Origin: Pyrinomonadaceae bacterium
GTDB taxonomy: Bacteria; Acidobacteriota; Blastocatellia; Pyrinomonadales; Pyrinomonadaceae
NCBI GenBank assembly: GCA_021463165.1
Contig: JAJTWY010000011.1
Location: 4,072-68,071 of the forward strand
DNA: 64,000 nt
Direction: 5' to 3'
Shown: positions 2,178 through 60,910 of the stretch, piece by piece
Layout: each line of letters opens with the position of its first letter
Numbering within the stretch: position 1 is the stretch's first letter
Translations under genes and position numbers: made by a program
Notes under the pieces: model-generated
What the model was told of the DNA's origin: nothing
The model's database searches: none
The model's input: only the letters and a program-made list of their open reading frames with translations

Positions 2178-3683
2178 ATGGCTAAATCAGAGATCAAGAA
2201 ATATAAGAACTATATCGGTGGCGAATGGGTGAGCTCGTCCTCGAATCAGTGGTTTGAGAACGTAAATCCTGCAGATACGACGGATATAATCGGGCGTTTT
2301 CCGGCGTCGAATGCCGAGGATGTGGACGCAGCGGTCGCGGCGGCAAAGGACGCGGCGACGCGCTGGCGAAGGACGCCTGCTCCAAAGCGGGCTGAACTGC
2401 TTTTCCGCTTAGCCCATATCCTCGAAAAGGGCAAAGATGCGTTCACGCAGCAGATGACGCGCGAAATGGGCAAGGTGCTCAAGGAGGCGGGCGGCGACGT
2501 TCAGGAGGCGATCGATTGTACGTACTACACCGCCGGCGAAGGGCGCCGTCTTCACGGTTTTACGACCCCGGCCGAGATGCCGAACAAATTTGCGATGTGC
2601 GTCCGCCAGCCGGTGGGGCTGTGCGGGCTTATCACGCCGTTCAACTTCCCGATGGCGATACCGTCATGGAAGTTGATCCCGGCCCTCGTCTGCGGCAATA
2701 CAGTGGTCCTAAAGTCCGGCGAGGACGTGCCGCTATCGTCGCTGAACTTGATCAAAGCATGTGAGGAGGCAGGAATCCCGAAAGGCGTTGTGAACCTTGT
2801 GAATGGATTTGCCGAGCCCGGGGCGGCTCTCGTCGAGCACCACGACGTACGTCTGATCTCTTTCACGGGCTCGACCACTACGGGCCGCATCATCGCCGAG
2901 CGATGTGCCCACGACAACAAGATCGTGAGCCTTGAAATGGGCGGAAAGAACGCCATCATCGTGATGGATGATGCGGATGTCGATAACGCCGTCGAAGGCT
3001 CGCTGTGGGGAGCCTTTGGCACGAGCGGCCAGCGATGCACGGCCTCGTCAAGGCTGGTAATTCATAAGAAGATCTACAAGAAATTCTGTGAAAAACTCGT
3101 CGAGAGGGCCAAGAAGCTCAAGGTCGGCAACGGCCTCGATCCGAAGACAGAAGTAGGGCCGGTGATCCACGAGGACGCGATGCAGAAGATACTCGGCTAT
3201 ATCCACATCGGTAAGGAGATCGACAAGGCAACCCTCGCGTGCGGCGGAAATCGGCTTACCCGCGGTGATCTCAAGAAGGGCTGGTTCGTCGAACCGACCG
3301 TTTTCACCGATGTAAAACGCGGCATGCGGATTGAGCAGGAAGAGATATTTGGGCCGGTGACGAGCGTCATTCCATTCTCGACGCTCGACGAGGCCATCGA
3401 CATCGTAAATGGTGTTAACTACGGCCTCTCAAGCGCGATCTACACGCAGGATGTGAACAACGCCTTTTACGCGATGCAGGAGCTCTACACCGGCATTTGC
3501 TATGTGAACTCGGCGACCATCGGAGCGGAAGTTCACCTGCCTTTCGGCGGAACAAAAGGAACCGGTAACGGCCACCGCGAGGCGGGAACTCAGGTTCTCG
3601 ACATTTTCAGCGAGTGGAAAGCTCTCTACGTTGACTACAGCGGCAAGCTGCAGAAGGCGCAGATCGATGCTGTTGAGATATAA
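2178..3683 (+). CDS. NAD(P)-dependent aldehyde dehydrogenase family protein
   Basis: 501 aa with ALDH hallmarks: [24 protein letters not shown], catalytic Cys in [10 protein letters not shown], and EEIFGPV. Confidence 0.9.
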
Positions 3684-4518: not shown

Positions 4519-5649
4519 ATGAAGATCGGTCTTCCGAAGGAGATCAAAGATAACGAATACCGCGTCGGTCTGACGCCGGCGGGGGTTCAGGCACTGGAAA
4601 ACGCGGGACACGAAGTTTTCGTTCAGAAAACTGCGGGCGAAGGCTCGGGTTTCAAGGACGAACAATACATCAAAGCCGGGGCCCAAATGCTCGACACGGC
4701 CGATGAAGTGTGGGAAGCAGGCGATATGATCGTCAAGGTGAAGGAACCTGTCGCCCCGGAATATCCGCGTATGCGCGAGGATCAGCTGCTCTTCACATAC
4801 CTTCATCTTGCACCCGAGCTTGAGCTGACAAAGCAGATGATGGAACGAAGAGTAACCGGCGTAGCTTACGAGACCATCACCGCGGGACGCCGTCTGCCAC
4901 TGCTTATTCCGATGTCGGAAGTTGCCGGTCGAATGTCTGTGCAGGTCGGTGCCACCTATCTGGAAAAAATGAATGGCGGGAAGGGAATCCTGCTCGGCGG
5001 CGTTCCCGGCGTTCCTGCCGCTAACGTCGTCATCATCGGCGGTGGGATCGTCGGTACCGAAGCTGCGAAGATGGCGGTCGGTTTAGGCGCAAAGGTCACG
5101 ATCATTGACCGCGATCTCGATCGCCTCCGTCAGCTCGACGATATATTCCTCTCGAAGGTCCAGACGCTTGCTTCGTCGCGTTATCAGATCGAAGAAGCTA
5201 TTTCCCACGCCGATCTCGTGATCGGTGCGGTTCTGGTCGTCGGAGCCGCTGCGCCGAAACTCGTCACGCGCGATATGCTTCATCTGCTTCCGCAAGGCTC
5301 CGTCCTTGTTGACGTGGCGGTGGACCAAGGCGGCTGCTTCGAGACGACGCACGCCACGACCCATTCAAATCCGACGTATTACGAAGAAGGCGTGCTTCAC
5401 TACTGCGTCGCAAATATGCCGGGTGCGGTGCCGCGAACGTCCACGTTCGCATTGACCAATGCTACGCTGCCGTATGCACTTGCTCTCGCGAACAAGGGTT
5501 TCGAAAGGGCGATCCGCGAGGATGCCGGACTTTGCGAAGGCGTGAACACATACGCCGGCAAGTGTACGTACGAAGCGGTTGCGACGTCGCAGAACATCGA
5601 GTACACTCCGCTCGACACCTTGATCGATCTAAAGGCCGAGGCTGCCTAG
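4519..5649 (+). CDS. ald: alanine dehydrogenase
   Basis: 376 aa. The N-terminus [23 protein letters not shown] and the Rossmann motif [13 protein letters not shown] match the AlaDH/PNT family. Confidence 0.92.
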
Positions 5650-5667
5650 AAGAGCGGTGGCATCTTT

Positions 5668-5740
5668 GCCACGAATGGCTCAAATATCACGAATGATCCT
5701 TTGCTCGTGCTATTCGCGCCATTCGTGGCTAAACTATTTT
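5668..5740 (+). terminator. long-loop hairpin plus T-run downstream of ald (terminator-like)
   Basis: A 12/12 inverted repeat pairs GCCACGAATGGC (5668-5679) with GCCATTCGTGGC (5718-5729). The 38-nt loop contains a second CACGAAT/ATTCGCG pair. TAAACTATTTTT follows. Confidence 0.4.
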
Positions 5741-5744
5741 TGGA

Positions 5745-7178
5745 ATGTATGAATTTGCGGTAACACCTGCGGTAACTCAGCTTAGGCGGCCGGGCGTGAT
5801 CATCACGGAGGTCGTGCCGGGCTCGGTAGGCTACTTACTGGAACTGCAGCCGAATGACCGCATCGTCAAGGTGAATGGCCGCTCGGTTCGTGACTATCTC
5901 GATTTTCGATTTCAAACTTCTGGCGAGACCGAGCTTACCTTCCTCGTAAAAAAAACGAACGGCGATACTGAAGAGATCGAATTTGACCGCGAGGAAGGCG
6001 AGGACTTCGGCCTTACGTTCGAGCAGATCGTACCCCGTCAATGTGCGAACGAATGTCTGTTCTGCTTCTGCAAAGGCAATCCTGAGGACGCGAGGCCCTC
6101 GCTGTTTGTTCGTGACGAGGATATTCGCCTTTCGTTCCTTTACGGAAATTACACCACGCTCTCGTCAATCACTGATGACGAGATGAATCGAATCATCGAA
6201 CAGCGGTTGTCGCCGCAGTATGTCTCGGTGCACACGACTGACCTGAGGACCCGGGCCTATCTTCTGGGTGTGGATGAAAAGCGAGCCGATATTTTCGATA
6301 AGTTCCAGCGGCTGCTCGACAACGACATCGAGATACACGCGCAGATCGTTCTCTGCCCGGAGATAAACGATGGTCCGGTCCTTGAAAAAACACTTCGCGA
6401 CCTCGCTGCGAAACACCCTAAAGTGATCTCTGCCGCTATTGTTCCAGTGGCTTTAACTCGATACAACACAGACGAGAGGTTGACCCGGGTCACGTCCGAA
6501 TTCTGCCGGCGCACTATCAAGCAGGTCGAAAAGCTCCAGAAGGAATTTCGCAAAACTCTCGGTGTGACGTTCGCGTTCATGGGTGACGAGATATATCTCA
6601 AGGGCGGCGTCGAGATACCTTCGAGGAAGCATTATGGCAACTATCCTCAGATCGAGGATGGCGTAGGAATGGTTCGGGCATTTGTGGCCAAGTTCGAACG
6701 ATCGCTGTCGGCTCCTGACCGGAACCGGGGGGCCTTGACAGGGCAAAAGCGAGCCTCTGATCGACGCACGCACATGGCTGCGACGGTCCCTCCGACATTT
6801 GCCAAAACCTATAGCAGCGTTACTGATGCCGTCACTGATCCCGCCTTTGGGACTATACTTACGGGCGAAATGTTCGCACCGATCCTTCGCGAACAGATCG
6901 ATAAGCTAAACGCCTTGAAAGGAACACGGCTCACCGTTCTTGCCGTTCCCAATATCTACTTTGGCGGCGACGTAGCGGTCGCCGGCCTCCTTTCAGGCCG
7001 GTGCCTGCTTGCGATGAAAGATAAGATCGTCGGAGATTTTGCCACTTTCCCCAAGGTCTGCATCAAATCGGACCAACCCATTCTCATCGACGGGATGTCA
7101 TTTGCGGATCTGGAGCGGAAGTTTCCTGTTCCAATTATTCCAGTGGATCTCGACAGCCTGATGCAGATCGTTCGATAG
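5745..7178 (+). CDS. DUF512-type radical-SAM-like protein with N-terminal PDZ domain
   Basis: 477 aa with a PDZ-like N-terminus (ITEVVPGSVGYLLELQPNDRIVKVNG). It has the Cys cluster CANECLFCFC, followed by the FLYGNYTTLS region typical of DUF512 proteins. Confidence 0.7.
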   Translation: MYEFAVTPAVTQLRRPGVIITEVVPGSVGYLLELQPNDRIVKVNGRSVRDYLDFRFQTSGETELTFLVKKTNGDTEEIEFDREEGEDFGLTFEQIVPRQCANECLFCFCKGNPEDARPSLFVRDEDIRLSFLYGNYTTLSSITDDEMNRIIEQRLSPQYVSVHTTDLRTRAYLLGVDEKRADIFDKFQRLLDNDIEIHAQIVLCPEINDGPVLEKTLRDLAAKHPKVISAAIVPVALTRYNTDERLTRVTSEFCRRTIKQVEKLQKEFRKTLGVTFAFMGDEIYLKGGVEIPSRKHYGNYPQIEDGVGMVRAFVAKFERSLSAPDRNRGALTGQKRASDRRTHMAATVPPTFAKTYSSVTDAVTDPAFGTILTGEMFAPILREQIDKLNALKGTRLTVLAVPNIYFGGDVAVAGLLSGRCLLAMKDKIVGDFATFPKVCIKSDQPILIDGMSFADLERKFPVPIIPVDLDSLMQIVR

Positions 7179-8256: not shown

Positions 8257-9141
8257 TTATCCGGTGAAATTGTAAATGATGGTCCCGCTGACCTTGATCG
8301 GTTCACCCGAGAGTTTGGTCGGTGTAAACCGGGACTTTCGGGCGGCGTTTTCGGCCGATGCCCTCAAAAGCGGGTGGCCCGACACGGCATCCGCCGAGAC
8401 AACATTTCCAAACTCGTCGATGAGGACGCGAACGCTGACCTGGCCTTTTGCATGGACCGCTTTGGCGGCCGACGAATAGACCGGCAGCGGCAGACTCATT
8501 GCCTGGCCATTGATCACTCCCATCGACCTGACGACCGGAGCCTTCGGCGTGGAAGGCGGATCTTTCTTGATCGGAGGCGGAGGTGGCTCCTCTTCAACCG
8601 CTTTGGCCACGGGTTCCGTCGCCGGGGTCAGGCCCGTTGCCGTGCCGGCCGTTGCTGTACCACTCGCCCGACGCCCCGATGTCTCGCCACCGACAGGATC
8701 AGAGTCGAATTTGCCCACCTCGAAGTATCCCGTTCTCGGTCGTTCTTTCTGCGTATTCCGAACTGTTGAAACCGCGGGCGGTGCCTCGCGAGGCGACTCG
8801 TCCACTCGGGCAATCACGGCTTGTCGCATTGGCAGTTTTGCCGCTGGTGCCGGCGCCGTTTGTGTCTGCTGCCGCTGCGGAGCAGGCTCAGTCGGGGTTG
8901 GCGCATCCGGTGGCGGTTCAACCGGGCTGAGCAGTTCTGTCAATTCAAACCGCTCTGTGCCGAGATCAAGATGCACGGCGAATAGGCTTGCGATAAGGGC
9001 CGCAGAAAGGCCTATAAACAAGACGAGTGAGGACGCCAGAAAGTAGGCCCTGCGATCTTTTATCTGGGCCGATTTGGGTTCAGTAAGTACCAATCGATCA
9101 AACATTTCAATAACCTCGGGAGCGGTCATGCCGTCCGTCAT
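8257..9141 (-). CDS. TonB family energy transducer (paralog 2)
   Basis: Same architecture as the 7276-8112 gene, with many shared blocks (RQA.IAR.DESP, EEPPPPP, GQVSVRVLIDEFGNV, SGEPIKV). The true start may be the internal Met at 9105 (MFDRLVLTEP, parallel to MFEELIETQ of paralog 1). Confidence 0.75.
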   Translation of the reverse strand: MTDGMTAPEVIEMFDRLVLTEPKSAQIKDRRAYFLASSLVLFIGLSAALIASLFAVHLDLGTERFELTELLSPVEPPPDAPTPTEPAPQRQQTQTAPAPAAKLPMRQAVIARVDESPREAPPAVSTVRNTQKERPRTGYFEVGKFDSDPVGGETSGRRASGTATAGTATGLTPATEPVAKAVEEEPPPPPIKKDPPSTPKAPVVRSMGVINGQAMSLPLPVYSSAAKAVHAKGQVSVRVLIDEFGNVVSADAVSGHPLLRASAENAARKSRFTPTKLSGEPIKVSGTIIYNFTG

Positions 9142-9434
9142 ATATTAGAAGAACTGATGGTGACTATCGGTTGCACTAATAATGCAACCTTCATTAAGGC
9201 TGTGACGGGAGCGGGCCGATATGCCGATCCACCGGCCCGCCGGATAAGGTGAGGTTATCTGAGGAAACTGATCTGTCTAACATTGAGTTGCTCCTTGAGC
9301 GGCGGTGCCGGCCGCTCTCAGTTAGACACCGGTTGGACGGATTTGTTCCGAAGACAAGAGAGGCGGAAACGGAAAACGAGCGTTGGGTCGCAAAGCAGGA
9401 AGGAAGGCCGCAAACCAGAATGACCGATCTTGAA

Positions 9435-10250
9435 TCAAGCGGAGAGCAGCGGATTGTACATCATGATCGCGTGGTTCTCGGTGACGAGTTCTTCGCTGGT
9501 CATTCCGTCGACGAGACTGGTCGTTCGCTTCCAAATGCGGTTGTGACGCGTGTAGCCGCCCCAAGGCTGCATCTTGATCAGGTGGTCAGTCTCGAAAACA
9601 GCATAGTCGTGTTCGCGTGGCCGATCGGAGAGGAGTTTGCCATTCAGGTATTCGTTGTCGAGCCAAAGTTTGATTTGAAAAGTGGCGTCGGTATCGTTGC
9701 GAAGCTGCAGGTCGATGTAGTTGTAGGCAAGTGTGGCTCCGCAAGCGAACGGTATTTTGCGGTCAATGTCGGGAAAGACATCAAAGCCATGACGATAGCG
9801 TTCAGTTATCGTCAACGGCGAATGAAGAGCCATCCAGTATAGTAGGTTCCCAAGTTGGCAAAGCCCGCCGCCGACCCCTTTCTCGATCTTGCCATTGTGC
9901 AGGACCAGGCCCTCGAGAAAGCCGCGTCTTGAAGTTGGCCGGCCGACCATACGCCAGATCGATAAGGTCTGGCCGGGTTTTATGACAACATCGTTTATAG
10001 GCTCGATCGCAAGGCGTAAATTCGTGACCTTGTTGTACTGAAGATACATCTCGACATCGCGAAGCGGCCGGAGGATAAATGAGCGATGGCAAAATATCTC
10101 GTGGGCGAGATTTACGGAATGGTCGGGGCGAGCAAAGCGTCTTGAGTTGGCGAGCCAGACCAACCGTCGCCGGGCGGTATAATATTCGCGGCCTAACAGA
10201 CTTCGCAAATAGCTGCGTTTGATCGGTTTAGGGAATAGCTTGCGGTCCAT
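9435..10250 (-). CDS. VanW family protein
   Basis: 271 aa. The conserved VanW core is GGGLCQLGNLLYWMALHSPL, with the downstream HGFDVFPD / GATLAYNYIDLQLRNDT blocks. Confidence 0.8.
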   Translation of the reverse strand: MDRKLFPKPIKRSYLRSLLGREYYTARRRLVWLANSRRFARPDHSVNLAHEIFCHRSFILRPLRDVEMYLQYNKVTNLRLAIEPINDVVIKPGQTLSIWRMVGRPTSRRGFLEGLVLHNGKIEKGVGGGLCQLGNLLYWMALHSPLTITERYRHGFDVFPDIDRKIPFACGATLAYNYIDLQLRNDTDATFQIKLWLDNEYLNGKLLSDRPREHDYAVFETDHLIKMQPWGGYTRHNRIWKRTTSLVDGMTSEELVTENHAIMMYNPLLSA

Positions 10251-10326
10251 CGGCTGCCAAACAATCGCGTGTTGAAATCAAATTGTAGCACTGGCCGAAC
10301 CGACAATGTTAGCGTGCCGTTCGCTC

Positions 10327-11301
10327 CTATCTTGAATTTCTTACGGCAACGATCTCGGCTGCGATCGAGACGGCGATCTCTTCGGGAGTTTGACTGTTGA
10401 TCGGGAGGCCGATCGGTGTACGAATGCGGGCGAGCTTATCGCTGTCGACGCCTTGATCGCGAAGCTCCTTCATCAATGTCTTCATCTTGGCCTCGCTGCC
10501 AAGGACACCGAAGTATTTCACTTTATGATCGATAAGGGCCTGGATGACGACGGCGTCGCTCGCGTATCCGAGAGTCATGACCACGACGTAAACATTATCG
10601 CTGGAGGGGATTTCCGCCGCGATATCCTGGTAAGAATCTACGATGGTCACCCGATCGGCAAACTGATTTTTGGCGATCGTATTAAGCGAAGGCCGGTCAT
10701 CAAAGATGGAGATCCGAAAATCCAGTTTTGACATCAGCTCACTCAACGCAAGAGAGCAATGTCCGCCGCCGACGATAAAAAGATCATGCTTGTAGCCGAG
10801 GCGTTCGCGATAAACAAACTCGGTCTCGCCAGTTTGTGTGAAATATTGCGGCGAGTGATCTTCCATGTCATCGACCATCTGAAATCTCAAATTTGAGATC
10901 TCCAATGCTCGCGACTCGCGGTTTTCTAAACACACAATTATTCGCTGAACGGTTTCGAGATGGTCCGTCGTGAGCGGTTTGACGATAATCGTCTGACGGC
11001 CCGAACAGATCATCCCGCTCGAATTTTGGATATCTTTACGGTGGATCTGTTCAACCAGCTCCGCTTCATTTCTGCCTTCGGCCCTCTTACTTTTTACTTT
11101 GGCCAACTCCGCGAGCCGAACTTCCATTACGCCGCCGCCGATCGAGCCGCACAATTCACCATCAGCCGCAACGGCCATCTTGTAACCGGCGCGTCCCGGA
11201 CTCGACCCGCTGCTCTCGGCGACGACGAGCAAAATTACACACTCATCTTGTAGCAGATGTTCGGCGACGAATTGCCATAGTTCGAGAGCCTTAGAGATCA
11301 T
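10327..11301 (-). CDS. xdhC: XdhC/CoxI family molybdoenzyme maturation protein
   Basis: 324 aa. The XdhC_CoxI N-domain has SSGSSPGRAGYKMAV and GSIGGG. The Rossmann-like C-domain has LFIVGGGHCSLAL. It lies in the same strand block as xdhAB. Confidence 0.85.
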   Translation of the reverse strand: MISKALELWQFVAEHLLQDECVILLVVAESSGSSPGRAGYKMAVAADGELCGSIGGGVMEVRLAELAKVKSKRAEGRNEAELVEQIHRKDIQNSSGMICSGRQTIIVKPLTTDHLETVQRIIVCLENRESRALEISNLRFQMVDDMEDHSPQYFTQTGETEFVYRERLGYKHDLFIVGGGHCSLALSELMSKLDFRISIFDDRPSLNTIAKNQFADRVTIVDSYQDIAAEIPSSDNVYVVVMTLGYASDAVVIQALIDHKVKYFGVLGSEAKMKTLMKELRDQGVDSDKLARIRTPIGLPINSQTPEEIAVSIAAEIVAVRNSR

Positions 11302-23887: not shown

Positions 23888-25390
23888 ATGCACTATCACT
23901 TGATCGGAATTTGCGGTACGGCGATGGCTTCGCTTGCCGGAATGCTGCAGGCTCGAGGACATAAGGTCACCGGTTCGGATAGAGACGTCTATCCGCCTAT
24001 GTCCACGCAGCTCGCGCAGCTGGGCATAGAGATCGTGCAGGGCTATCAGGCCGAGAATTGTGAGATCGACCGAGACGTGACGGTCGTCGGCAACACGATA
24101 ATGCGAGGGAATCCCGAACTGGAAGAGGTCTTGAACCGGAAAATGTTGTATCGGTCGCAGGCTGAGACGGTAAGGGACGTGTTCATAAGGGCAGAAACAC
24201 GACCGGTCGGGAGTGTGTCCCGGGCTGGCGAGAAGCCACTTGGCGTAAGTTCTGAAAATACACTCCCTACCGGTCGTGTCTCGGCCAAACGCTCGCTGGT
24301 GGTTGCGGGGACACACGGAAAGACGACGACGACATCGCTTGCGGCGTGGATGTGCGAGGTTGGCGGGCTCGATCCGACGTTTTTGGTCGGCGGCGTGGTT
24401 CAGAATTTTGGCCAGAGCTTTCGCGTGACTGACAGCGACTATTTTGTAATCGAGGGCGACGAATACGACACGGCCTTCTTTGATAAGAAGCCGAAGTTCA
24501 TGTCGTATCTGCCGGAGATCGCGATCGTAAACAATATCGAATTCGACCACGCCGACATCTACAAAGACCTTGACGCTATCAAATGGCAGTTCTCGCGGCT
24601 GATGAATCTTGTTCCCGGCAACGGCCGCCTGATCTGCGGCATCGATTCGCCCGTGGTCGGCGAAGTTCTCTCCTCGATGGCTGGGAAGCTCTACACTACC
24701 GTCGAGACGTTCGGGCTGAGCGAAGGGGCAAAATGGCAGGCTCGCGATATAGAATTCACCTCGGACGGCACGCGGTTCAAGGTATTTTGCGAAAGCGAAC
24801 CGTGGGGTGAATTCACGACGAATATGTTTGGCGAATTTAATGTTCGCAACTGTTTGGCGGTGATCATTGCGGCGGACGCCTGGGGCATTTCGCGCACAAA
24901 GATGCAGGAATGCTTTGACACATTCGAATCGGTGAAGCGACGTATGGAGGTTCGCGGCGTGGAGCGAGGCGTGACCGTCATCGACGACTTTGCCCATCAC
25001 CCGACCGCCGTCGACGAAACTCTGAAAGCTCTCAGGCAAAGGTACAAAAACAACCGTCTGATCGCCGTCTTCGAACCGCGCTCGCGTTCGTCGCGGCTGT
25101 CGGTATTCGAAGACCAATACCGCAGAGCGTTCGCACACGCCGACTACGTTATCATCACCGCCGTTTTCAACCCCGAAGACGCCTTGCGTTTCGGCTCGAC
25201 GCTCCTCGACGTTGGCAAACTGATCACGGACATCGCCGCCACCGGCAAAACTGCCATAACTCTCCCAGATGCCGACGCCATCGTCGATCACCTCGCCCCG
25301 CAAATGCAGGAAGGCGACGTCATCGCCGTGATGTCGAACGGCGGGTTTGGGGGCATACATGAAAAGATCTTGAATGTCCTGACGCATTGA
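23888..25390 (+). CDS. mpl: UDP-N-acetylmuramate:L-alanyl-gamma-D-glutamyl-meso-DAP ligase (murein peptide ligase)
   Basis: The N-terminus is MHYHLIGICGTAMASLAGML..GH.VTGSD..VYPPMS. It has the P-loop AGTHGKTTTT, then EGDEYDTAFFDK, DDFAHHPTA and MSNGGFGGIH. At 500 aa it is about 30-40 aa longer than I recall for typical Mpl, because of the insert at 24191-24286. Confidence 0.9.
   Translation: MHYHLIGICGTAMASLAGMLQARGHKVTGSDRDVYPPMSTQLAQLGIEIVQGYQAENCEIDRDVTVVGNTIMRGNPELEEVLNRKMLYRSQAETVRDVFIRAETRPVGSVSRAGEKPLGVSSENTLPTGRVSAKRSLVVAGTHGKTTTTSLAAWMCEVGGLDPTFLVGGVVQNFGQSFRVTDSDYFVIEGDEYDTAFFDKKPKFMSYLPEIAIVNNIEFDHADIYKDLDAIKWQFSRLMNLVPGNGRLICGIDSPVVGEVLSSMAGKLYTTVETFGLSEGAKWQARDIEFTSDGTRFKVFCESEPWGEFTTNMFGEFNVRNCLAVIIAADAWGISRTKMQECFDTFESVKRRMEVRGVERGVTVIDDFAHHPTAVDETLKALRQRYKNNRLIAVFEPRSRSSRLSVFEDQYRRAFAHADYVIITAVFNPEDALRFGSTLLDVGKLITDIAATGKTAITLPDADAIVDHLAPQMQEGDVIAVMSNGGFGGIHEKILNVLTH
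24191..24286. mobile_element. MITE-like palindromic element inserted in frame in mpl
   Basis: The left arm is GAAACACGACCGGTCGGGAGTGT (24194-24216). The right arm is ACACTCCCTACCGGTCGTGTCTC (24260-24282). They are 21/23 complementary and separated by a 43-nt core. The 96 nt equal 32 codons (AETRPVGSVSRAGEKPLGVSSENTLPTGRVSA). Confidence 0.7.
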
Positions 25391-26111
25391 CTCGTTCATT
25401 TGTTTCACCCAAAAGGTGCCCCGATCGGGCGTTGATTCCCCGCAAGATCAACTCCAGATCGCGATCGTTCCGTGGGACGCTTTGAGTGTGGCGATCTCGT
25501 AACTATCATCAAACACAACAAGTTAACCACTATTCCGAACCAGCCCTGTCCCAAGTGTCCCACCCCTGTCCCAGGCCTTCGGTGGGACAGTTAACATATT
25601 TAGCATCAGTGAGTTACGGCGAATATTCGTCCGATCTTCGCCGGATTTTAAAAAAAGCACGTTACTTTGTCTTACACCTGCCATAATGTGCAACATTGTA
25701 TCATACATAGGACACAAAAGTCAATGATCGGCTTCCCGGCCAAGGTCCTGCCGGCTCGCCCCAACCCAGGCGTCCTCGTCGAATTTCAGCCCTCCTGGAA
25801 GCAAAAGGGCCACCACCGTCGCCGCCTTATAGAACGTAAGGTTTTACGGCATTCACCAAAAGCTCTCGGATTTTTTGAGAGTCGAAAGTGTAATAGAATA
25901 GGGGCGTCCTTGGGGCGACAGCGATTCGTAAATGGCAACAGGTCAGGTCAAGTCCCGTCACGTGTTTGATGGATCTGCTTTTCAAAGATACGGGGAAGAG
26001 GGATTTATCCCGAAACCGATCCGCGAGTTTCCGTTGACCCATTTATTAAAGATCGCGGATGCCGAAAAATGGTAGCGTTGATGGTAAAATAAGCTTGAAA
26101 AGGAGGCATAA

Positions 26112-26351
26112 ATGACCAACATCGTCGCAGAGATAACGGCCAAGTCAGCGTCGCTGCCGCCTGATCTGCAATATGAGGTTCTGGATTTTGTCGATTTTGT
26201 CGCCGGCAAACGACGCCGCGTCAAGACAACGGGAACTCCATTTCAGAGCGTTCGCGGAATACTGGAACGTGACTTGTCCAATCTGGAAATAGATCTGGCC
26301 CAGGTGCGCGATGAAATGTGGAAAAACTTTCCGGAAGAGGCGTCAGAATGA
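26112..26351 (+). CDS. DUF2281 family antitoxin-like protein
   Basis: 79 aa. LPPDLQYEVLDFVDFV is the DUF2281 signature. The stop overlaps the start of the PIN gene (ATGA). Confidence 0.75.
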   Translation: MTNIVAEITAKSASLPPDLQYEVLDFVDFVAGKRRRVKTTGTPFQSVRGILERDLSNLEIDLAQVRDEMWKNFPEEASE

Positions 26352-26755
26352 GTGCTGTGGTCACTGATACCCACGCCTTGCTTTGGTATCTCAGTAATTC
26401 AAGCAAGCTTTCGCGGGATGCTTCGAATGCTCTCGAAAATGCAGAGCAAAATGGATATCCAATTTATGTTCCGGCTATTAGCCTGATCGAACTGCGTTAT
26501 CTGGTCGAAAAGGGGCTTGATATTGAGGAACGCGATTTCCGGCTGGTGATCGAGAAATTGAATAGTCCGCAGAGCGCTTTGACCTTTGCTCCGTTAAGCC
26601 AGGGAACAGCCGAAGACCTCTATCAAATACCACGCTCCATCGTTCCCGATATGCCGGACCGCCTTATTGCAGCAACCGCCTACAACCTCGATCTGCCGCT
26701 GATCAGCATAGATATAAGCATCCGCAACCTGAAAAACGTCACGGTTATCTGGTAA
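26348..26755 (+). CDS. PIN domain toxin (VapC-like)
   Basis: 135 aa from the ATG at 26348. VVTDTHALLWYL and the later acidic residues (ISLIEL, PDRLIAATA) fit the PIN fold. The ORF track gives a longer upstream start at 26318. Confidence 0.75.
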   Translation: MSAVVTDTHALLWYLSNSSKLSRDASNALENAEQNGYPIYVPAISLIELRYLVEKGLDIEERDFRLVIEKLNSPQSALTFAPLSQGTAEDLYQIPRSIVPDMPDRLIAATAYNLDLPLISIDISIRNLKNVTVIW

Positions 26756-26835
26756 TACGTTAGTTCAATGCCTGTGATCAGCAGATATAGCCGTCACCGG
26801 CAAGACGACCATAACTTTTCCCGGCGCCGCCATTG

Positions 26836-27000
26836 TCGTACCAATGCACATTCTCATCATAAAACTCGGCAGTATCGGGGACATTATTCACACGCTGCCG
26901 TTGCTGGCGGCGATTCGGGCGGCGTTGCCGGATGGCGAGATCTCGTGGGTTGTCGAGGAGCGGTCGGCGGAGGTATCTTACGGCGGGATGGGCTGATCGA
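26836..27000. repeat. direct repeat copy 1: duplicated 5' end of the GT9 gene
   Basis: Near-identical to 27910-28074. The first 57 nt from the ATG are identical. After that there are a few substitutions, a 2-nt insertion (GT) and increasing divergence. Confidence 0.85.
26844..26996 (+). pseudogene. truncated 5' fragment of the glycosyltransferase family 9 gene
   Basis: It translates to MHILIIKLGSIGDIIHTLPLLAAIRAALPDGEISWVVEERSAEVSYGGMG*. This matches the first ~43 aa of the intact GT9 at 27918, then frameshifts and stops. Confidence 0.8.
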
Positions 27001-27047
27001 CGAAACGGTGTGATCTAAGAACTAATTTAAGCGAGCTTCCGACAAGT

Positions 27048-27887
27048 ATGAAAGATGAACAGACAATAGCGGCTTTTCAGGAGTACCAGATACGGCGTTG
27101 GTACGATGAGGGCGAGGAAAAGTGGTATTTCTCAGTGATAGATGTTGTGGGAGCTTTGTCCGATAGCGCGAATGCGCGGGATTATTGGTTCAAGATGAAG
27201 ATTCGGGTCAAGGCTGATGACGGTTTTGAACTGTCGACGATTTGTCGACAGTTGAAAATGAAAGCCCCAGACGGGAAAATGCGCGAAACGGATTGTTCGG
27301 ACGCTCAGGGCTTGCTCCGGATCATCCAATCAATTCCTTCACCGAAGGCCGAGCCGTTCAAGCAATGGCTGGCAAAGGTTGGTTATGAAAGGCTTCAGGA
27401 GATGGGCGATCCGGCTCGTTCGCTTGATCGGGCTCGCGAAAACTGGCAGCGGCAAGGTCGCAGCGAAAAGTGGATCCAACAGCGGATGACCGGCCAGGAA
27501 ACCCGCAATAAGCTGACTGACTATTGGAAAGATCACGGTGTTATGGGTGATGAGTATGCGTTGCTGACGAATATCATCCATCAGGAATGGAGCGATGTTA
27601 GCGTAAAGCAGCACAAACAGATCAATGGACTGAAAACGCAGAACCTGCGCGACCACATGAGTGAGGCGGAACTACTATTTACTGCCCTGGCTGAACTGAC
27701 AACCCGGCAAATTGCAGAACGCGACCGGGCCGAAGGTTTTCCGGAAAATGTCGACTCCGGTCGTAAAGGCGGGCGCGTCGCGAAGCGGGCCCGCCTCGAT
27801 TTTGAATTGGAAACCGGTAACAAGGTCGTATCGAGTGATAACTTTCTGCCCACGACACCAGAGAAGAAAAGACTAAAAAAAGGATAA
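27048..27887 (+). CDS. Bro-N domain protein, DinD/antirepressor-like
   Basis: 279 aa. The Bro-N-like N-terminus is FQEYQIRRWYDEGEEKWYFSVIDVVGAL. The C-terminal region resembles the DNA-damage-inducible protein D architecture (from memory, no search run). Confidence 0.65.
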   Translation: MKDEQTIAAFQEYQIRRWYDEGEEKWYFSVIDVVGALSDSANARDYWFKMKIRVKADDGFELSTICRQLKMKAPDGKMRETDCSDAQGLLRIIQSIPSPKAEPFKQWLAKVGYERLQEMGDPARSLDRARENWQRQGRSEKWIQQRMTGQETRNKLTDYWKDHGVMGDEYALLTNIIHQEWSDVSVKQHKQINGLKTQNLRDHMSEAELLFTALAELTTRQIAERDRAEGFPENVDSGRKGGRVAKRARLDFELETGNKVVSSDNFLPTTPEKKRLKKG

Positions 27888-27909
27888 CCGTTCAGTCGCG
27901 ACTTCGTCC

Positions 27910-28074
27910 TCGTACCAATGCACATTCTCATCATAAAACTCGGCAGTATCGGGGACATTATTCACACGCTGCCGTCGCTTGCGGCGCTTCGGGCGGTGTT
28001 GCCGGATGGCGAGATCTCGTGGGTTGTCGAGGAGCGGTCGGCGGAGATCTTGCGGGGGAACGCGTTGATCGACA
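27910..28074. repeat. direct repeat copy 2: 5' end of the intact GT9 gene
   Basis: See 26836-27000. Confidence 0.85.
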
Positions 28075-29039
28075 ATTTGATCGAGGTCGATACCAAGAGC
28101 CTGCGGAGCGGGAAGGTCATTGAGGAGATATTGCTGGGAGTAACGAAGCAGATAAAAGAGCTACGGCAATACAGTTTCGATATTTCGATCGATTTTCAGG
28201 GGCTTTGGAAATCGGCGGCGATAGGGAAGCTGTCGGGAGCGAAGCGGCGGTTCGGGTTTGATAAAGACGGGCTTCGCGAGGCTTCGAGCAGGGTTTTGCT
28301 GACCGATCAGATCGCGGTTTCGTCCGGGATCCATGTGATCAGGAAGAATCTTGCACTGGCGGCCGGCGCATTGGGCGTCGAGATCCCAGATACGGATCTT
28401 GAGTTTCCGATCGCGACCTCGGCCGAGTATATCGCCGAGGCAGATGCGATAGTCGCTGCGACCGAATACACAGGCCCAGGCTCGGGCGGGGATGGAACAC
28501 GTATGTCGGAGGGGTCGCCCTTGCCGACGCGTGGACTTTCGGAGAAAGGAGGCTTCGCGGTACTCAATCCCGCCGGCGGGTGGGTGACGAAGCTCTGGCA
28601 TGCGGAAAAATATGGCGAACTCGCCGACCGCATCTGGGAGGAACACGCCATGCCGTCGCTCCTTGTTACGGGCCCTAACGAGTCCGATCTGGCCGAGCGT
28701 GCGGCGGCAAGGAGCCATTCCGGTAAGCTGACCCTGGCCGAACCGAGTTTGAAAGGCTTTTACGAGATCGCAAAACGGGCGGAAGTTTACGTCGGCGGCG
28801 ACACCGGCCCGACCCATATAGCGGTTGCGGCCGGCGCCCCGATAGTCGGAATTTTCGGGCCAACAGAATGGTGGCGAAACGGCAGCCCGCGGTCGGAAGA
28901 TATCTGTGTGGAACGGGACGACATTGATTGCCGTGTGGATTGCCACCGCCGGTCGTGCTCAAATTGGATCTGCATGGACATCAGCGTGGAAACAGTTTTG
29001 GAGGCCGTTGGCAGAAGGCTAGCGCGGACTCACCGGTGA
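27918..29039 (+). CDS. glycosyltransferase family 9 (heptosyltransferase-like)
   Basis: 373 aa. The N-terminus MHILIIKLGSIGDIIHTLP, plus W..E.....L and the C-terminal GGDTGPTHIA block, are typical of GT9. Confidence 0.85.
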   Translation: MHILIIKLGSIGDIIHTLPSLAALRAVLPDGEISWVVEERSAEILRGNALIDNLIEVDTKSLRSGKVIEEILLGVTKQIKELRQYSFDISIDFQGLWKSAAIGKLSGAKRRFGFDKDGLREASSRVLLTDQIAVSSGIHVIRKNLALAAGALGVEIPDTDLEFPIATSAEYIAEADAIVAATEYTGPGSGGDGTRMSEGSPLPTRGLSEKGGFAVLNPAGGWVTKLWHAEKYGELADRIWEEHAMPSLLVTGPNESDLAERAAARSHSGKLTLAEPSLKGFYEIAKRAEVYVGGDTGPTHIAVAAGAPIVGIFGPTEWWRNGSPRSEDICVERDDIDCRVDCHRRSCSNWICMDISVETVLEAVGRRLARTHR

Positions 29040-49464: not shown

Positions 49465-51345
49465 ATGTGCGGAATAGCCGGATTTATAGCCTCTGACTCA
49501 GGGCGACGCGCGGAGCGGGAAGCTCTGCTTGACGCGATGTGCAGGGAGATCGTCCACCGCGGACCTGACGAGCAGGGAACTGCGATCGAAGGGCGAGCTG
49601 CCATGGGCATGCGTCGGCTCTCCATCATCGATCTGGCGACCGGTCAGCAGCCGATCTACAATTCAGATCGAACCAAGCTGATCGTTTTTAACGGCGAGAT
49701 CTACAATTATCGCGAGTTGAAGAACGAGCTGGAGGGCCGCGGCTACAGGTTCCGTACGAATTCAGATACTGAGACCATCATTCATGCATTCGAAGAATTC
49801 GGCCCGGCGTGCCTCGACCGGCTTCGAGGGATGTTTGCCTTTGCGATCTGGGATCAGAAGAACGAAAGCCTGTTCCTCGCTCGCGACCGTGTCGGCAAAA
49901 AGCCGCTGTTCTATTCGATCGTGGGCGACGAGTTGGTCTTTGGTTCCGAGATCAAGGTTTTGCTAAAACATCCCGCGGTGAACCGGGAACTCGACCATGG
50001 GGCGCTCGATGCCTATTTGACCTTCGGTTACGTTCCTGAAGAATTGTGTATCCTGAGAGGCATTCAAAAGCTCGAACCCGGCCATTTTCTAACCTTTAAC
50101 GGTCGAGAAGCCGTCAAAACGCGCTATTGGGATTTCGACTATTCACGCGAAACGCTGGATGGACCCGAGGACAAGATAGCGGACGACCTGCTCGAAAAAC
50201 TCACGGAAGCGGTCAGGGTCAGGCTGATCTCAGAAGTCCCGCTTGGTGCATTCCTTTCGGGCGGTATCGATTCGAGCGTGGTCGTCGGGTTGATGTCACG
50301 CATCCTGGATAAGCCGGTCAAGACCTTCTCGATCGGATTTAGCGAGGACAGCTTTAACGAACTCAAATTCGCCAGGAAGGCTGCCAGCCATTTCAGGACA
50401 GAGCATCACGAGTTCATGATCACGCCGGATTCGTTCGACATCGTGGATGACCTCGTATGGCATTTTGACGAGCCATTCGCTGATCCAAGCTCACTGCCGA
50501 CGTTCATGCTGTCGAAGATGGCTCGCGAGCACGTGACGGTCGCGCTTTCCGGCGATGGCGGCGACGAATTGTTTGCAGGCTATACACGATACGTCACCGA
50601 CCGTGACCGAAGTGCCTTTGGCCGGCTGCCTGAAAGTGTTCGCTCGCGAATGCTGCGCCCGCTCAGCGAGGCCCTGCCGCAGGGAACTCGCGGCAAGAAC
50701 TATCTTTTCAATATCTCGCTCGATGCGGCCGGCCGGTATATCGATTCGATCTCACATTTTAACGGGCCAAACCGGCGCAAGCTCCTATCATCCGAAGTTC
50801 GCGGAAAGATGAACGGAACATTCGGTAGCGGCGACAAACTCTTTCGGGAGATCGCTGAAACTTCTGGCGCATCGGATCCGATCGATAATCTTCTTTATCT
50901 TGACAGCAAGACCTACCTTCCCGGTGACATCCTCACAAAGGTCGATCGTATGAGTATGGCATCGTCTCTTGAGACGCGAAGCCCGCTGCTGGACCAGGAA
51001 TTGATCGATCACGCGACCCGAATTCCATCGTCGTTGAAACTGAAAGGTCACGAGACAAAGTACATTTTCAAAAAAGCCGTCGAGGAGATCGTTCCGGGCG
51101 ATATCCTGAATCGCGAAAAGCAAGGATTCGGTGTTCCGATCGGTGACTGGATAAATGCGCAGTTGAGAGAACGCATCATCGGCGATCTCTCCGACCGACG
51201 GACGGCCGAGCGGGGTTACTTCGACGCAAAGTATGTGAAGCTGGTGATCGACGAGCATAGCCGCGGCCGCCGCGATCATTCACACGCGTTGTGGACGCTT
51301 TGGATGCTGGAGCTTTGGCACCGCCGATACATCGACAATAAATAA
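49465..51345 (+). CDS. asnB: asparagine synthase (glutamine-hydrolysing) family amidotransferase, paralog 1
   Basis: MCGIAG N-terminal nucleophile, RGPD, NGEIYN and the SGGIDSS PP-loop. Confidence 0.88.
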   Translation: MCGIAGFIASDSGRRAEREALLDAMCREIVHRGPDEQGTAIEGRAAMGMRRLSIIDLATGQQPIYNSDRTKLIVFNGEIYNYRELKNELEGRGYRFRTNSDTETIIHAFEEFGPACLDRLRGMFAFAIWDQKNESLFLARDRVGKKPLFYSIVGDELVFGSEIKVLLKHPAVNRELDHGALDAYLTFGYVPEELCILRGIQKLEPGHFLTFNGREAVKTRYWDFDYSRETLDGPEDKIADDLLEKLTEAVRVRLISEVPLGAFLSGGIDSSVVVGLMSRILDKPVKTFSIGFSEDSFNELKFARKAASHFRTEHHEFMITPDSFDIVDDLVWHFDEPFADPSSLPTFMLSKMAREHVTVALSGDGGDELFAGYTRYVTDRDRSAFGRLPESVRSRMLRPLSEALPQGTRGKNYLFNISLDAAGRYIDSISHFNGPNRRKLLSSEVRGKMNGTFGSGDKLFREIAETSGASDPIDNLLYLDSKTYLPGDILTKVDRMSMASSLETRSPLLDQELIDHATRIPSSLKLKGHETKYIFKKAVEEIVPGDILNREKQGFGVPIGDWINAQLRERIIGDLSDRRTAERGYFDAKYVKLVIDEHSRGRRDHSHALWTLWMLELWHRRYIDNK

Positions 51346-58966: not shown

Positions 58967-60910
58967 ATGTGCGGTATCAACGGAATTGCATTTTCCCCAC
59001 GTTCAGGCAGACAAATTGATATGGAAGATCTCGTCAGGATGCGAGATGTTCTGCATCATCGCGGGCCTGACGACGGCGGTGTCTTCATCGACGGAAATAT
59101 TGGCCTTGGGCATCGCCGATTGAGTATCGTCGACGTCGCCAATGGAGTACAGCCGATGTTCTCGGACGACCACTCCGCCGTGATCGTCTATAACGGTGAG
59201 GTGTACAACCACGCAGATTCACGAGGTGAACTGGAGCAACGCGGGCACGTATTTAACAACCGCAGCGATACCGAGACGATCCTTCACCTTTATCAGGAAT
59301 ATGGCCGAGACTGCGTCGAACATATGCGCGGGATGTTTGCCTTAGCTATCTGGGATAAGACGAAACGCGAGCTTTTTATCGCCCGCGACCGATTTGGCGT
59401 AAAGCCGTTGTACTACGTTCATGACGCGGACGGCAATCTTTTCTTCGCTTCCGAGATCAAGGCTCTCCTCGAAGCAGGTGCAGTAAAGCCCGAGCTGAAT
59501 TACGACGCGCTGCCCGACCAACTCGCAAATCATGGCACATCCGGGGATCAGACCCTTTTCGCGGGGGTCAAACGCCTTACTCCCGGACATACAATGATCT
59601 GGCGCGACGGCCGACTCGACATTGCCGAGTTTTGGGATCTGAAATTCGAGCCCAAGCACGAACCGCGTTCCGACGCTGACTATATCGAGGAATGGCGTGA
59701 TCTCTTCCGAAAGTCGGTGGAGCTGCGGCTGATGGCCGATGTTCCTTTGGGGATGTTCCTCTCCGGCGGTATAGATTCGTCGGCAATAGCGGCAATGATG
59801 TCCTCGATGGTGAGCGAACCCATCAAGACCTTTTCGATCGGATTCGGCGAGCGTGAGGCGAACGAGCTGGAATACGCGCGTCTCGTCTCACGAAAACTCG
59901 GAACGGATCACCACGAAATAACGCTGTCACCCGACCAGTTCTTCGCTGCCCTGCCGCAGTTGATCTGGCATGAGGACGAACCTATCGGATTCATCGCTTC
60001 GATCCCGCTTTATTTTATTTCGAAGCTCGCGAGCGAACATGTAAAAGTCGTACTCACCGGCGAGGGAAGCGACGAGACGCTGGCGGGCTACGGCCGCTAT
60101 CAAAAGGCCTTAAATCTGCTCGATTACGGCGAGCGATACGAGAGCCTGACGCCGTCGTTCGTGCGAAACGCTGTTCGAGGCGGCGTTGCTACACTGCCTT
60201 CGAAGTTCGGCAATAAGCTCAACCGCACTTTTCTGACGCGTGATGCTGACATCGAAAGCCTCTTCTTCGACAATTTCAGTGTCTTTGGGCGCTCGATGCA
60301 GAGCGAGATGCTGTCTCGTAAAACGCGAGAACGCATTGCGGATCTCGATCCATACGCTGAACAGAACCGTTTGCTGGCAGTTTCGGATGCCAAAGACACG
60401 CTCGACCGCCTTCTATATGCCGACACCAAGACATACCTGCACGAGCTGCTGATGAAACAGGACCAGATGTCGATGGCTGCGTCGATCGAAAGCCGTGTAC
60501 CCTTTCTTGACCACAAACTCGTTGAATTCTCTGCCGCGATGCCGCGTGAGATGAAGCTTCGCGGCGGGACGACAAAATGGATCCTTCGCGAGGCGATGAA
60601 AGGGATCTTGCCCGATGCTATCCTCAACCGCCCGAAGATGGGATTTCCGGTACCGGTCGGGAAGTGGTTTCGGAGCGAGTATAAGCACATCGTCGATGAA
60701 TTTGTTCTTGGCAACAGGCCTCTCGAACGCGGGGTCTTTGAGCCAGAATTTGTTCGTAATCTCGTCCGCCGTCACAACTCGGGTGAAGACCACGCTCAAC
60801 GGATCTGGTTCCTTGTCAATTTTGAAATCTGGCAGCGACGTTTCATCGACGGTGAGGAAACGACAGCCAATGCGTCGGTCTCGATGGCAGAAGAATTGGT
60901 AGCCGCTTAA
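58967..60910 (+). CDS. asnB: asparagine synthase (glutamine-hydrolysing) family amidotransferase, paralog 2
   Basis: MCGINGI, RGPD, NGEVYN and SGGIDSSAI. Same architecture as paralog 1, with many shared blocks when aligned by eye. Confidence 0.88.
   Translation: MCGINGIAFSPRSGRQIDMEDLVRMRDVLHHRGPDDGGVFIDGNIGLGHRRLSIVDVANGVQPMFSDDHSAVIVYNGEVYNHADSRGELEQRGHVFNNRSDTETILHLYQEYGRDCVEHMRGMFALAIWDKTKRELFIARDRFGVKPLYYVHDADGNLFFASEIKALLEAGAVKPELNYDALPDQLANHGTSGDQTLFAGVKRLTPGHTMIWRDGRLDIAEFWDLKFEPKHEPRSDADYIEEWRDLFRKSVELRLMADVPLGMFLSGGIDSSAIAAMMSSMVSEPIKTFSIGFGEREANELEYARLVSRKLGTDHHEITLSPDQFFAALPQLIWHEDEPIGFIASIPLYFISKLASEHVKVVLTGEGSDETLAGYGRYQKALNLLDYGERYESLTPSFVRNAVRGGVATLPSKFGNKLNRTFLTRDADIESLFFDNFSVFGRSMQSEMLSRKTRERIADLDPYAEQNRLLAVSDAKDTLDRLLYADTKTYLHELLMKQDQMSMAASIESRVPFLDHKLVEFSAAMPREMKLRGGTTKWILREAMKGILPDAILNRPKMGFPVPVGKWFRSEYKHIVDEFVLGNRPLERGVFEPEFVRNLVRRHNSGEDHAQRIWFLVNFEIWQRRFIDGEETTANASVSMAEELVAA

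Follow-up and report, generated by a model that had tools for sequence, protein, structure and literature searches.

How does a gene that carries no mobility functions come to lie between two copies of the start of another gene while that gene stays intact? The question is raised by a 64,000-nt stretch of DNA from a Pyrinomonadaceae bacterium (assembly GCA_021463165.1, contig JAJTWY010000011.1, positions 4,072 to 68,071 of the forward strand; "the window" hereafter means this whole stretch), in which a gene encoding a DinD-like Bro-N protein is flanked by a direct duplication of the 5' end of a glycosyltransferase family 9 (GT9) gene. We found that the locus matches the published but little-studied class known as "insertion with long target duplication", for which this type of cargo is new, and that the same signature recurs around related genes at other targets. 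The 906-nt unit at 27004–27909, made up of the DinD-like Bro-N gene with its leader and a 22-nt tail, appears to be a one-gene mobile cassette, and for its entry we lean towards homology-driven integration, of Campbell type or one-sided, from a related donor.

A Bro-N gene lies between two copies of a GT9 5' end

Gapped alignment places the direct repeats at 26836–27003 (copy 1) and 27910–28076 (copy 2), with 92.8% identity over 166 nt by blastn. Their ungapped core, returned by a repeat search, spans 137 nt (26836–26972 and 27910–28046) at a spacing of 1074 and 97% identity, with 133/137 matches. Each copy begins 8 nt 5' of an ATG, which is the start of the stub in copy 1 and of GT9 in copy 2. 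The two are identical over their first 66 nt, from −8 through coding nucleotide 58, and then differ by four substitutions; the stub-specific variants stand at 26902, 26907, 26914 and 26924, together with an extra GT at 26973–26974 of copy 1, after which a tail of ~30 nt is only ~73% identical. Local alignment of one flank against the other scores 133.5, versus 11.5 for the reverse-complement control, and the 64-kb window holds no second direct repeat of comparable kind. The features of the locus are as follows, with the evidence for each in brackets.

26836..27003, + strand: repeat copy 1, a dead stub left from the resident GT9 5' end (repeat search, alignment, family consensus)
26844–26996, + strand: stub open reading frame (ORF), 50 residues (ORF call)
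27004..27047, + strand: illegitimate joint (~27003/27004) and Bro-N leader (GGTGTGA motif common to the leaders of related Bro-N genes elsewhere, by alignment)
27048..27887, + strand: Bro-N cargo gene, 279 residues (ORF call, Pfam, PADLOC, PHROG)
27888..27909, + strand: 22-nt spacer from the Bro-N stop codon to copy 2 (homologous to the Bro-N–GT9 spacer of locus L015, with a shared ...GAYTTCGTCC)
27910..28076, + strand: repeat copy 2, heading the functional gene (repeat search, alignment)
27918..29039, + strand: intact GT9 gene, heptosyltransferase-I-like, 373 residues (Pfam, NCBIfam; synteny in loci L015, L095 and L099)

The GT9 protein matches Pfam Glyco_transf_9 (6e-30), and the sequence ATCTTGCGGGGGAACG is specific to GT9; the best NCBIfam match of the protein is heptosyltransferase I (TIGR02193), with 173.5 bits, slightly below the 185.3-bit cut-off. 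The stub retains the family-consensus residues I24 and A27, while the working copy is derived at both. Conserved PEMT, DUF3108 and DUF4912 genes follow 3' of GT9.

Much of this anatomy had been proposed in a sequence-only reading, made by a model from the letters and a list of ORFs. The repeat search and alignment bear out its two ~165-nt copies of the GT9 5' end from −8, and the few substitutions and 2-nt insertion of copy 1; it was right that the coding starts are identical, and put the length of the identity at 57 rather than 58 nt. The ORFs agree with its dead 50-codon stub in copy 1 and intact gene headed by copy 2, and within its 1,074-bp repeat unit Bro-N (27048–27887) is indeed the sole ORF with a family match. 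It had also argued that the repeats are no transposase target-site duplication. We found no terminal inverted repeats, transposase or integrase between the repeats by repeat search, ORF inspection and Pfam, and the ~166-nt repeat is far too long when compared to the short, fixed target duplication that accompanies inverted repeats and a transposase in DDE/insertion sequence transposons. A transposase-type event is therefore excluded.

Independent metagenomes contain the same junctions

Four metagenome runs from separate studies yield the same set of Logan contigs at this locus: 25800–26865, the collapsed 137-nt repeat at ~2x depth, a 997-nt contig covering 26943–27939, and sequence from 28017 onward. 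The 997-nt contig starts in the stub tail, crosses Bro-N and ends in copy 2; in 4/4 runs the depth of Bro-N is close to that of the flanks (about 1x). A 1104-nt Logan contig (L182) joins the 3' end of Bro-N to the copy-2 variant, and a metatranscriptome contig (26155–27191) connects a VapB gene, a VapC gene, copy 1 and the 5' end of Bro-N.

We weighed these data against the possibility, already raised in the sequence-only reading, that the repeat is an assembly artefact, either a mis-join or a collapsed strain variant. The 66-nt identity is longer than the Logan k-mer, the repeat is collapsed, and one contig from an RNA run follows an alternative path. Yet the junction contigs recur in four unrelated studies at ~1x, contigs connect VapBC to copy 1 and Bro-N, and Bro-N to the copy-2 variant, and many independent assemblies show this architecture at other targets (below); together these points make an artefact extremely improbable.

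The data bearing on population heterogeneity were Logan contigs rather than reads; the repeat is collapsed in them, and rare excision lies below their resolution. The alternative path just mentioned comes from run X26, a reverse-transcription PCR (RT-PCR) metatranscriptome, where a 329-nt contig at 3.5x joins 27909 to 26836, passing from the 3' end of Bro-N through the shared 66 nt and the stub variant to the 5' end of Bro-N. Such a junction would be seen in a 1074-bp circle or a tandem copy. A de Bruijn path along the 66 identical nt explains the contig equally well: this stretch exceeds the assembler's word, and a false path is just as likely. The L182 contig was also considered as a circle, its length being 1074 + 30 = 1104, and rejected, since the two copies share the 30 nt that make its ends identical, and it closes with 137 nt of the copy-2 variant. 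Judging from the run labels and the names of the best protein matches, the source habitat is probably activated sludge; runs X1, X5 and X10 are sludge metagenomes in which this strain occurs.

The cassette is transcribed, with Bro-N covered by RNA-derived contigs in four metatranscriptomes. A promoter and terminator scan around the junctions gave nothing useful, and no terminator was predicted in the 30-nt gap between Bro-N and GT9. The suggestion that the intact GT9 is transcribed from within or through the insert is thus plausible, given the short gap, the lack of a predicted terminator and the RNA contigs that run from VapBC through the stub into Bro-N.

The two repeat copies have different upstream contexts

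The contexts of the two copies distinguish which of them was there before. In L099, from a different species, the stop codon of a Mur-ligase gene lies 4 nt from the GT9 start, and PEMT, DUF3108 and DUF4912 follow as in the window. In the window, Mur ligase and GT9 are 2.5 kb apart and the DNA between them is lower in GC. The features of this part are as follows.

23888..25390, + strand: intact Mur-ligase (Mpl-like) gene, the ancestral upstream neighbour of GT9 (Pfam Mur_ligase, Mur_ligase_M and Mur_ligase_C; L099 synteny)
25391..26774, + strand: an earlier or second insertion block, made of ~720 nt of non-coding DNA, a VapB-like gene and a VapC gene (Pfam, NCBIfam, GC profile)
26112–26351, + strand: VapB-like gene (DUF2281; Pfam, NCBIfam)
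26348–26755, + strand: VapC PIN toxin gene (Pfam, NCBIfam)
26775..26838, + strand: 64-nt relic of the Mur-ligase 3' end, ADIAVTGKTTITFPGAAIVV vs TDIAATGKTAITLPDADAIVD (local alignment to 25221–25286; tblastn E=0.007; L099 alignment)

Because copy 1 stands directly 3' of the Mur relic and the order Mur–GT9 is ancestral, copy 1 is the resident GT9 5' end. Alignment with L099 shows that ~100 nt of the Mur 3' end are gone between the relic and the GT9 start. The other context is that of L015, a locus of another species (72% amino acid identity for GT9 and 86% for Bro-N), where Bro-N is followed by 51 nt and then GT9, with a homologous spacer and no stub. Since copy 2 is likewise preceded by Bro-N and this spacer, it stands in the donor-type context. 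The conservation in a second species of this stub-less Bro-N–GT9 adjacency had escaped the sequence-only reading.

L099 and L095/L096 each have a single GT9 5' end and neither Bro-N nor stub; they belong to different species, with GT9 proteins 76–78% identical. The sequence-only reading had suggested comparing relatives for an uninterrupted PIN–GT9 junction; in L099 the neighbour of GT9 is Mur ligase.

The VapBC block is of low GC (0.48–0.50) and absent from L099. The Mur 3' region on one side and the Mur relic on the other enclose it and its ~720 non-coding nt (25391–26838), so that the locus has two nested insertions of the same style. Elsewhere in the window, 49765–49964 and 59267–59469, 9.5 kb apart, are 71% identical; these are probably paralogous genes unrelated to the present finding.

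The signature recurs around the cargo family

We wondered how often relatives of the cargo gene are flanked in this way. In a survey of 80 species-level genome loci and 80 metagenome loci, of which 139 were testable, the 500 nt upstream of each gene were aligned to the 540 nt downstream, a score of ≥35 being taken as positive. Homologous loci were positive in 20/139 cases, compared with 2/105 for control ORFs, which were the other 200–400-residue ORFs of the same loci (Fisher p=5e-4; alignment controls score 8–28). One of the two positive control ORFs has paralogues on either side, and the other is a KilA-N gene. The flanking repeats in the 20 loci are 45–220 nt long and lie at other targets. 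Except for two histidine-kinase targets, their sequences are unrelated between loci, from which it follows that they are target-derived. The leader (33–66 nt) and the tail (0–42 nt) of the cassette are fairly constant across loci.

In 13/16 gene-end cases, the outer edge of the repeat is no more than 10 nt from a start or stop codon (p ~7e-9 against a generous 15% expectation). The distances, in nucleotides, are as follows.

Edges at start codons: window 8, L007 3, L131 0, L043 5, L093 7
Edges at stop codons: L068 0, L080 2, L089 −1, L169 −2, L161 −3, L134 −7, L076 8, L162 10

At L007–L014, which are eight independent assemblies, a cargo homologue (81% identical) is flanked by a 146-nt repeat that begins at −3 and covers the start of a GIY-YIG/ResIII gene, part of a type IIG restriction–modification (R-M) locus.

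Similar repeats were seen around other cargos. The L070 locus (minus strand; plus-strand repeats at 2136–2265 and 3155–3284) carries a gene for a 275-residue KilA-N protein within a 130-nt direct repeat (83% identity) of the 3' end of a cysteine-desulfurase-like gene. At L141 6604–7590, a homologue of the E. coli-type DinD (277 residues, Bro-N) has a 74-nt direct repeat (92%, spacing 914), and the locus also carries the other DinD-like subfamily. Direct repeats of 49–229 nt flank further small cargos at five loci.

L061 931–2206: RhuM, repeat-flanked
L062 1964–3167: HigBA-like Gp49/HTH pair, repeat-flanked
L094 827–1576: HigB/HigA, repeat-flanked
L099 756–1704: DUF2442, with the repeat ending exactly at the stop codon of a Peptidase_S46 gene
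L043 4738–6455: Fic, repeat-flanked

The signature seems to be common for defence-island and toxin–antitoxin (TA) cassettes. At L091, two Bro-N copies, each 61.15% identical to the query, lie in a 1.9-kb direct duplication (4576–6480 and 8738–10642; 98.5% identical, 4162 nt apart), with further repeats of 111–390 nt around each copy, which suggests a possible amplification mediated by repeats.

The cargo is a DinD-like Bro-N protein

The sequence of the cargo identifies it as a DinD-like Bro-N protein of the candidate phage-defence family PDC-S13. Residues 21–110 match Pfam Bro-N (PF02498; 1.4e-9, 38.9 bits against a gathering cut-off of 25.6), the C-terminal half is helical, residues 1–274 match the PADLOC PDC-S13 model PDLC04920 (2.2e-118), and the protein also matches PHROG 15286. 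The profile search suggested in the sequence-only reading, which had named the gene Bro-N/DinD-like, thus gave the expected outcome with both Pfam and PADLOC. No recognisable catalytic domain was detected, Pfam, NCBIfam and PDB sequence searches having returned Bro-N only, with nothing below E=0.8 in the PDB search. An AlphaFold2 model built from 33 homologues (mean predicted local distance difference test score, pLDDT, of 49) was too poor for use. A C-terminal domain common to the cargo and the L070 KilA-N protein, noticed by eye, was not supported by hhalign (E=0.17) and was dropped. A literature search on Bro-N/DinD mobility or PDC-S13 retrieved nothing specific.

E. coli DinD has RecA-inhibiting activity. 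E. coli DinD (b3645) and the cargo are alike in their N-terminal Bro-N domain, helical C-terminal half and length (274 vs 279 residues), and both match PDC-S13 with cross-matches in both directions. They differ in sub-model, since DinD matches the sister model PDLC04919 and cross-matches 04920 at 2e-16. Their C-terminal similarity extends over 91–93 residues (E=0.009–0.01), and within part of the C-terminal half their identity is only ~27%. No repeat flanks the dinD gene of E. coli. In E. coli K-12 (L100), DinD also matches the PADLOC "Type I specificity subunit" model (positions 6–267/717, 3e-114), which raises the possibility that a DinD-like part is fused to the N-terminus of some HsdS proteins of that model.

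The cargo family is large, with >8000 homologues, 72–87% identical, in Acidobacteriota, Nitrospirota, Desulfobacterota, Bacteroidota and others, often within R-M operons (L007, L181). At L181 1027–1860, an 82%-identical homologue starts 7 nt after the upstream gene and its stop codon overlaps the next start, with no flanking repeat; the upstream product ends in ...ITFHQLPYDLAKKTWF, presumably a type III Mod-like C-terminus, and the downstream gene is Res-like (MSLKDYQQNLLDDY...). In L018, L048, L063, L070, L083 and L085, partial and diverged Bro-N fragments (34–64% amino acid identity) adjoin the full-length gene, and these may be what is left of earlier alleles that were displaced, or of insertions that hit one site more than once.

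Differences between copies bear on origin and age

Across 17 coding repeats, differences between copies fall 52/38/115 on codon positions 1/2/3 (p=2e-11). L007 alone gives 3/1/16, and L007, L134, L132 and L029 pooled give 17/7/64, far from neutral decay of one copy (p=3e-6). This third-position excess implies that many stubs come from functional genes of other lineages.

A comparison of L007, L008 and L014 bears on when they came. The flanks of these loci are 100% identical, as are Bro-N, the joint and the intact GIY-YIG/ResIII copy, and they differ in a hypervariable stub and the segment 5' of it (4075–5966 of L007). This segment is the C-terminal, recognition-domain half of an Eco57I-like type IIG gene with an optional 117-residue gene. 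Standing at the right edge of a hypervariable target recognition domain (TRD) cassette, the stub can be regarded as a right-hand homology arm for allelic exchange, and the comparison looks like an exchange of recognition-domain cassettes that used it as such. By this comparison, a codon-position bias that would otherwise read as proof of a xenologous origin at insertion can also come from later allelic exchange.

The window's own repeats differ in a mosaic fashion, with a density of 4/137 in the core versus 8/30 in the tail (p=1.3e-4). Such a mosaic is what an old insertion would leave if it were common to the L015 lineage and repeat similarity had been kept by gene conversion: the 137-nt block at 97% would owe its similarity to a recent conversion in which the functional copy overwrote the stub, the true age would show in the diverged tail, and L015 would have lost its stub by deletion. 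The homology of the Bro-N–GT9 spacer between two species at only 72% GT9 protein identity fits this view, and the ~100-nt deletion in the Mur relic also suggests age. Yet it is the stub that has the consensus residues I24 and A27 and the functional copy that is derived, the opposite of what simple conversion by the functional copy would produce. We consider such an old insertion unlikely; it addresses age only, is silent on how the duplication arose, and could be combined with homology-driven entry or with the dedicated mechanism discussed below.

The locus compared with known systems

Insertion with long target duplication of R-M genes was reportedly described by Nobusato et al. in 2000 (Gene 259:99). 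The class is known from R-M genes in Helicobacter and later from many bacteria (PMC2853133): the repeats, long and variable, often extend across a start or stop site, and other mobile elements are absent. How these insertions arise is given there as unknown, and it has been proposed that such genes cycle through insertion, amplification and release (PMC2853133). Like the insertions screened by Furuta, Abe & Kobayashi in 2010 (NAR 38:2428, PMC2853133), the locus has direct repeats of >30 bp (~166 nt; 137 nt at 97%) and an insert below 20 kb without mobility genes (the 1074-bp unit), and it shares with them the small unit, the survival of the target gene and the defence-gene context. In contrast, criterion (i) of that screen asks for R-gene and M-gene homologues, and the cargo here is a DinD-like Bro-N gene; solitary mcrA and orphan M genes are also inserted in this way (PMC2853133). 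A further difference is that the edges here lie at the terminus of the coding sequence itself and that many stubs are xenologous, which points to homology-driven entry or later exchange and away from a simple duplication made in a single step. The sequence-only reading had not made the connection to this class, and had likewise missed the recurrence around the gene family and the similar signature of the VapBC block.

Kobayashi's group reads the class as the product of a dedicated, transposition-like mechanism that makes a true long target duplication (PMC2853133). For the present loci, this would mean breaks 50–200 nt apart, one of them at a gene boundary, that are filled in after the cassette joins, and the enzyme could be that of the host, that of another element or the Bro-N protein itself. 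It would account for the recurrence of repeats around the cargo family and around L141 (E. coli-type DinD), L070 (KilA-N) and L061 (RhuM), and the fairly constant leader and tail suggest defined ends. However, edges fall at the termini of coding sequences far more often than staggered cuts followed by selection would yield, terminal repeats are absent, the cargo has no recognisable catalytic domain, TA and DUF2442 cassettes with unrelated proteins carry the same signature, and many stubs are xenologous. For these reasons we regard a dedicated mechanism as rather unlikely.

A further possibility, distinctly unlikely in our view, is that DinD-like Bro-N genes, perhaps with KilA-N and RhuM genes, are minimal one-gene elements with an active part in their own insertion, which would take place at gene termini and leave long duplications. 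By one route, the DNA-binding product would guide or curb RecA-mediated recombination in the sequences on either side of its gene. If true, this would amount to reversible, scar-free insertion, excision and amplification by an element with neither transposase nor integrase.

The e14 element in icd and SXT in prfC replace the end of a gene, encode recombinases and are many kilobases long. Such integrases, which act at gene ends and bring a substitute end, make repeats of this kind: a 100–200-nt direct repeat of the end of a protein gene, with the functional end supplied by the element, as at our locus. The locus could by analogy be the remnant of a site-specific integrative element, with an attachment site in the GT9 5' end, a replacement 5' end carried in, and an integrase lost or acting in trans; the copies in L007, L008 and L014 agree best at the inner edge, beside the joint. 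But no integrase lies between the repeats here or in ~25 other repeat-flanked loci, the cargo is only ~1 kb, the targets vary by locus and >25 of them would demand as many specificities, and the identical stretch in the window is at the outer rather than the inner end. Rfam and tRNA scans of the window found nothing, and hence no tRNA-type attachment site. We consider this explanation very unlikely.

Probable homology-driven entry from a related donor

Homology-driven integration, towards which we lean, would proceed as follows. The incoming DNA would derive from a related lineage in which the cassette already lies directly 5' of GT9, as in L015, and would carry Bro-N and the GT9 start. Its GT9 part would recombine with the resident GT9, either by one crossover after the fragment had circularised (Campbell type) or as a linear, one-sided event, with one homologous crossover downstream and one illegitimate joint at ~+160. 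The first ~165 nt of the resident gene would remain upstream as a stub, still joined to the relic of its old neighbour, and the incoming copy would now head the working gene. The repeat would begin at −8 because the homology between donor and recipient ends there, and, if entry is homology-driven, the rule that edges lie at gene termini would follow in general, since homology ends where neighbours differ, at the end of the coding sequence.

Homology-facilitated illegitimate recombination (HFIR) is reportedly the subject of de Vries & Wackernagel 2002 and Prudhomme et al. 2002. Both the direction of transfer and the recombination route we infer from the products, and the same applies to any role of the cargo protein. 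Integration by one homologous arm is documented for E. coli conjugation, where 56/60 integrants with one such arm had duplications of 109–950 bp, which were single crossovers of circularised DNA (PMC3240628). The topology is the same as here; those were laboratory constructs, while our case is drawn from natural genomes. In the sequential displacement arrays of type VI secretion system (T6SS)/Rhs loci (Kirchberger 2017), a horizontally acquired module enters via a conserved anchor, next to which orphaned pieces of the resident gene remain, and HFIR has been proposed (PMC5361080). In those arrays the conserved 5' part of the effector serves as the anchor, and what stays behind is the displaced 3' part or an immunity gene (PMC5361080), whereas at our locus the duplicated part is the end of a housekeeping gene and the cargo is unrelated to that gene.

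The sequence-only reading had proposed single-crossover integration of a circular molecule or a duplication-insertion event. The homology-driven part of that proposal fits, with copy 1 in the Mur–GT9 context, copy 2 in the L015-type context and the edge at the start codon; the circle is one candidate intermediate, and a linear one-sided event gives the same product. That interpretation was thus largely right in kind.

Several observations weigh against homology-driven entry. No donor with matching sequence was found, nor was a conspecific (strain-level) empty site, the nearest GT9 orthologues being 76–78% identical. The scheme requires that the cassette was previously placed at −8 in the donor without a repeat, a step that it leaves unexplained. 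The leader and tail look like fairly defined ends of an element, which a dedicated mechanism also predicts, and the enrichment for one family is beyond what passive recombination alone would give, unless this family undergoes more transfer or selection. Finally, codon bias can also be produced by exchange after insertion and is no proof that the repeat was xenologous at birth, and in the window itself the repeat differences by codon position (4/3/3) are too few to tell.

Biological significance

Taken together, these findings indicate that small defence-island genes, such as those for DinD-like proteins, TA pairs, RhuM and Fic, can spread without mobility genes of their own and with essential neighbours intact, as the duplication leaves GT9 intact here. 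The flanking repeats, a 137-nt substrate at 97% identity of which 66 nt are perfect, are suited to RecA-dependent precise loss, circle formation or amplification, and make the insertion reversible and amplifiable. For annotation, short N- or C-terminal stub ORFs beside such genes should be treated as relics rather than genes, and the functional target gene may be expressed through the insert. The recurrence around one gene family, the rule that edges lie at gene termini and the nested second example make the mechanism of this class of insertion open to experimental test.

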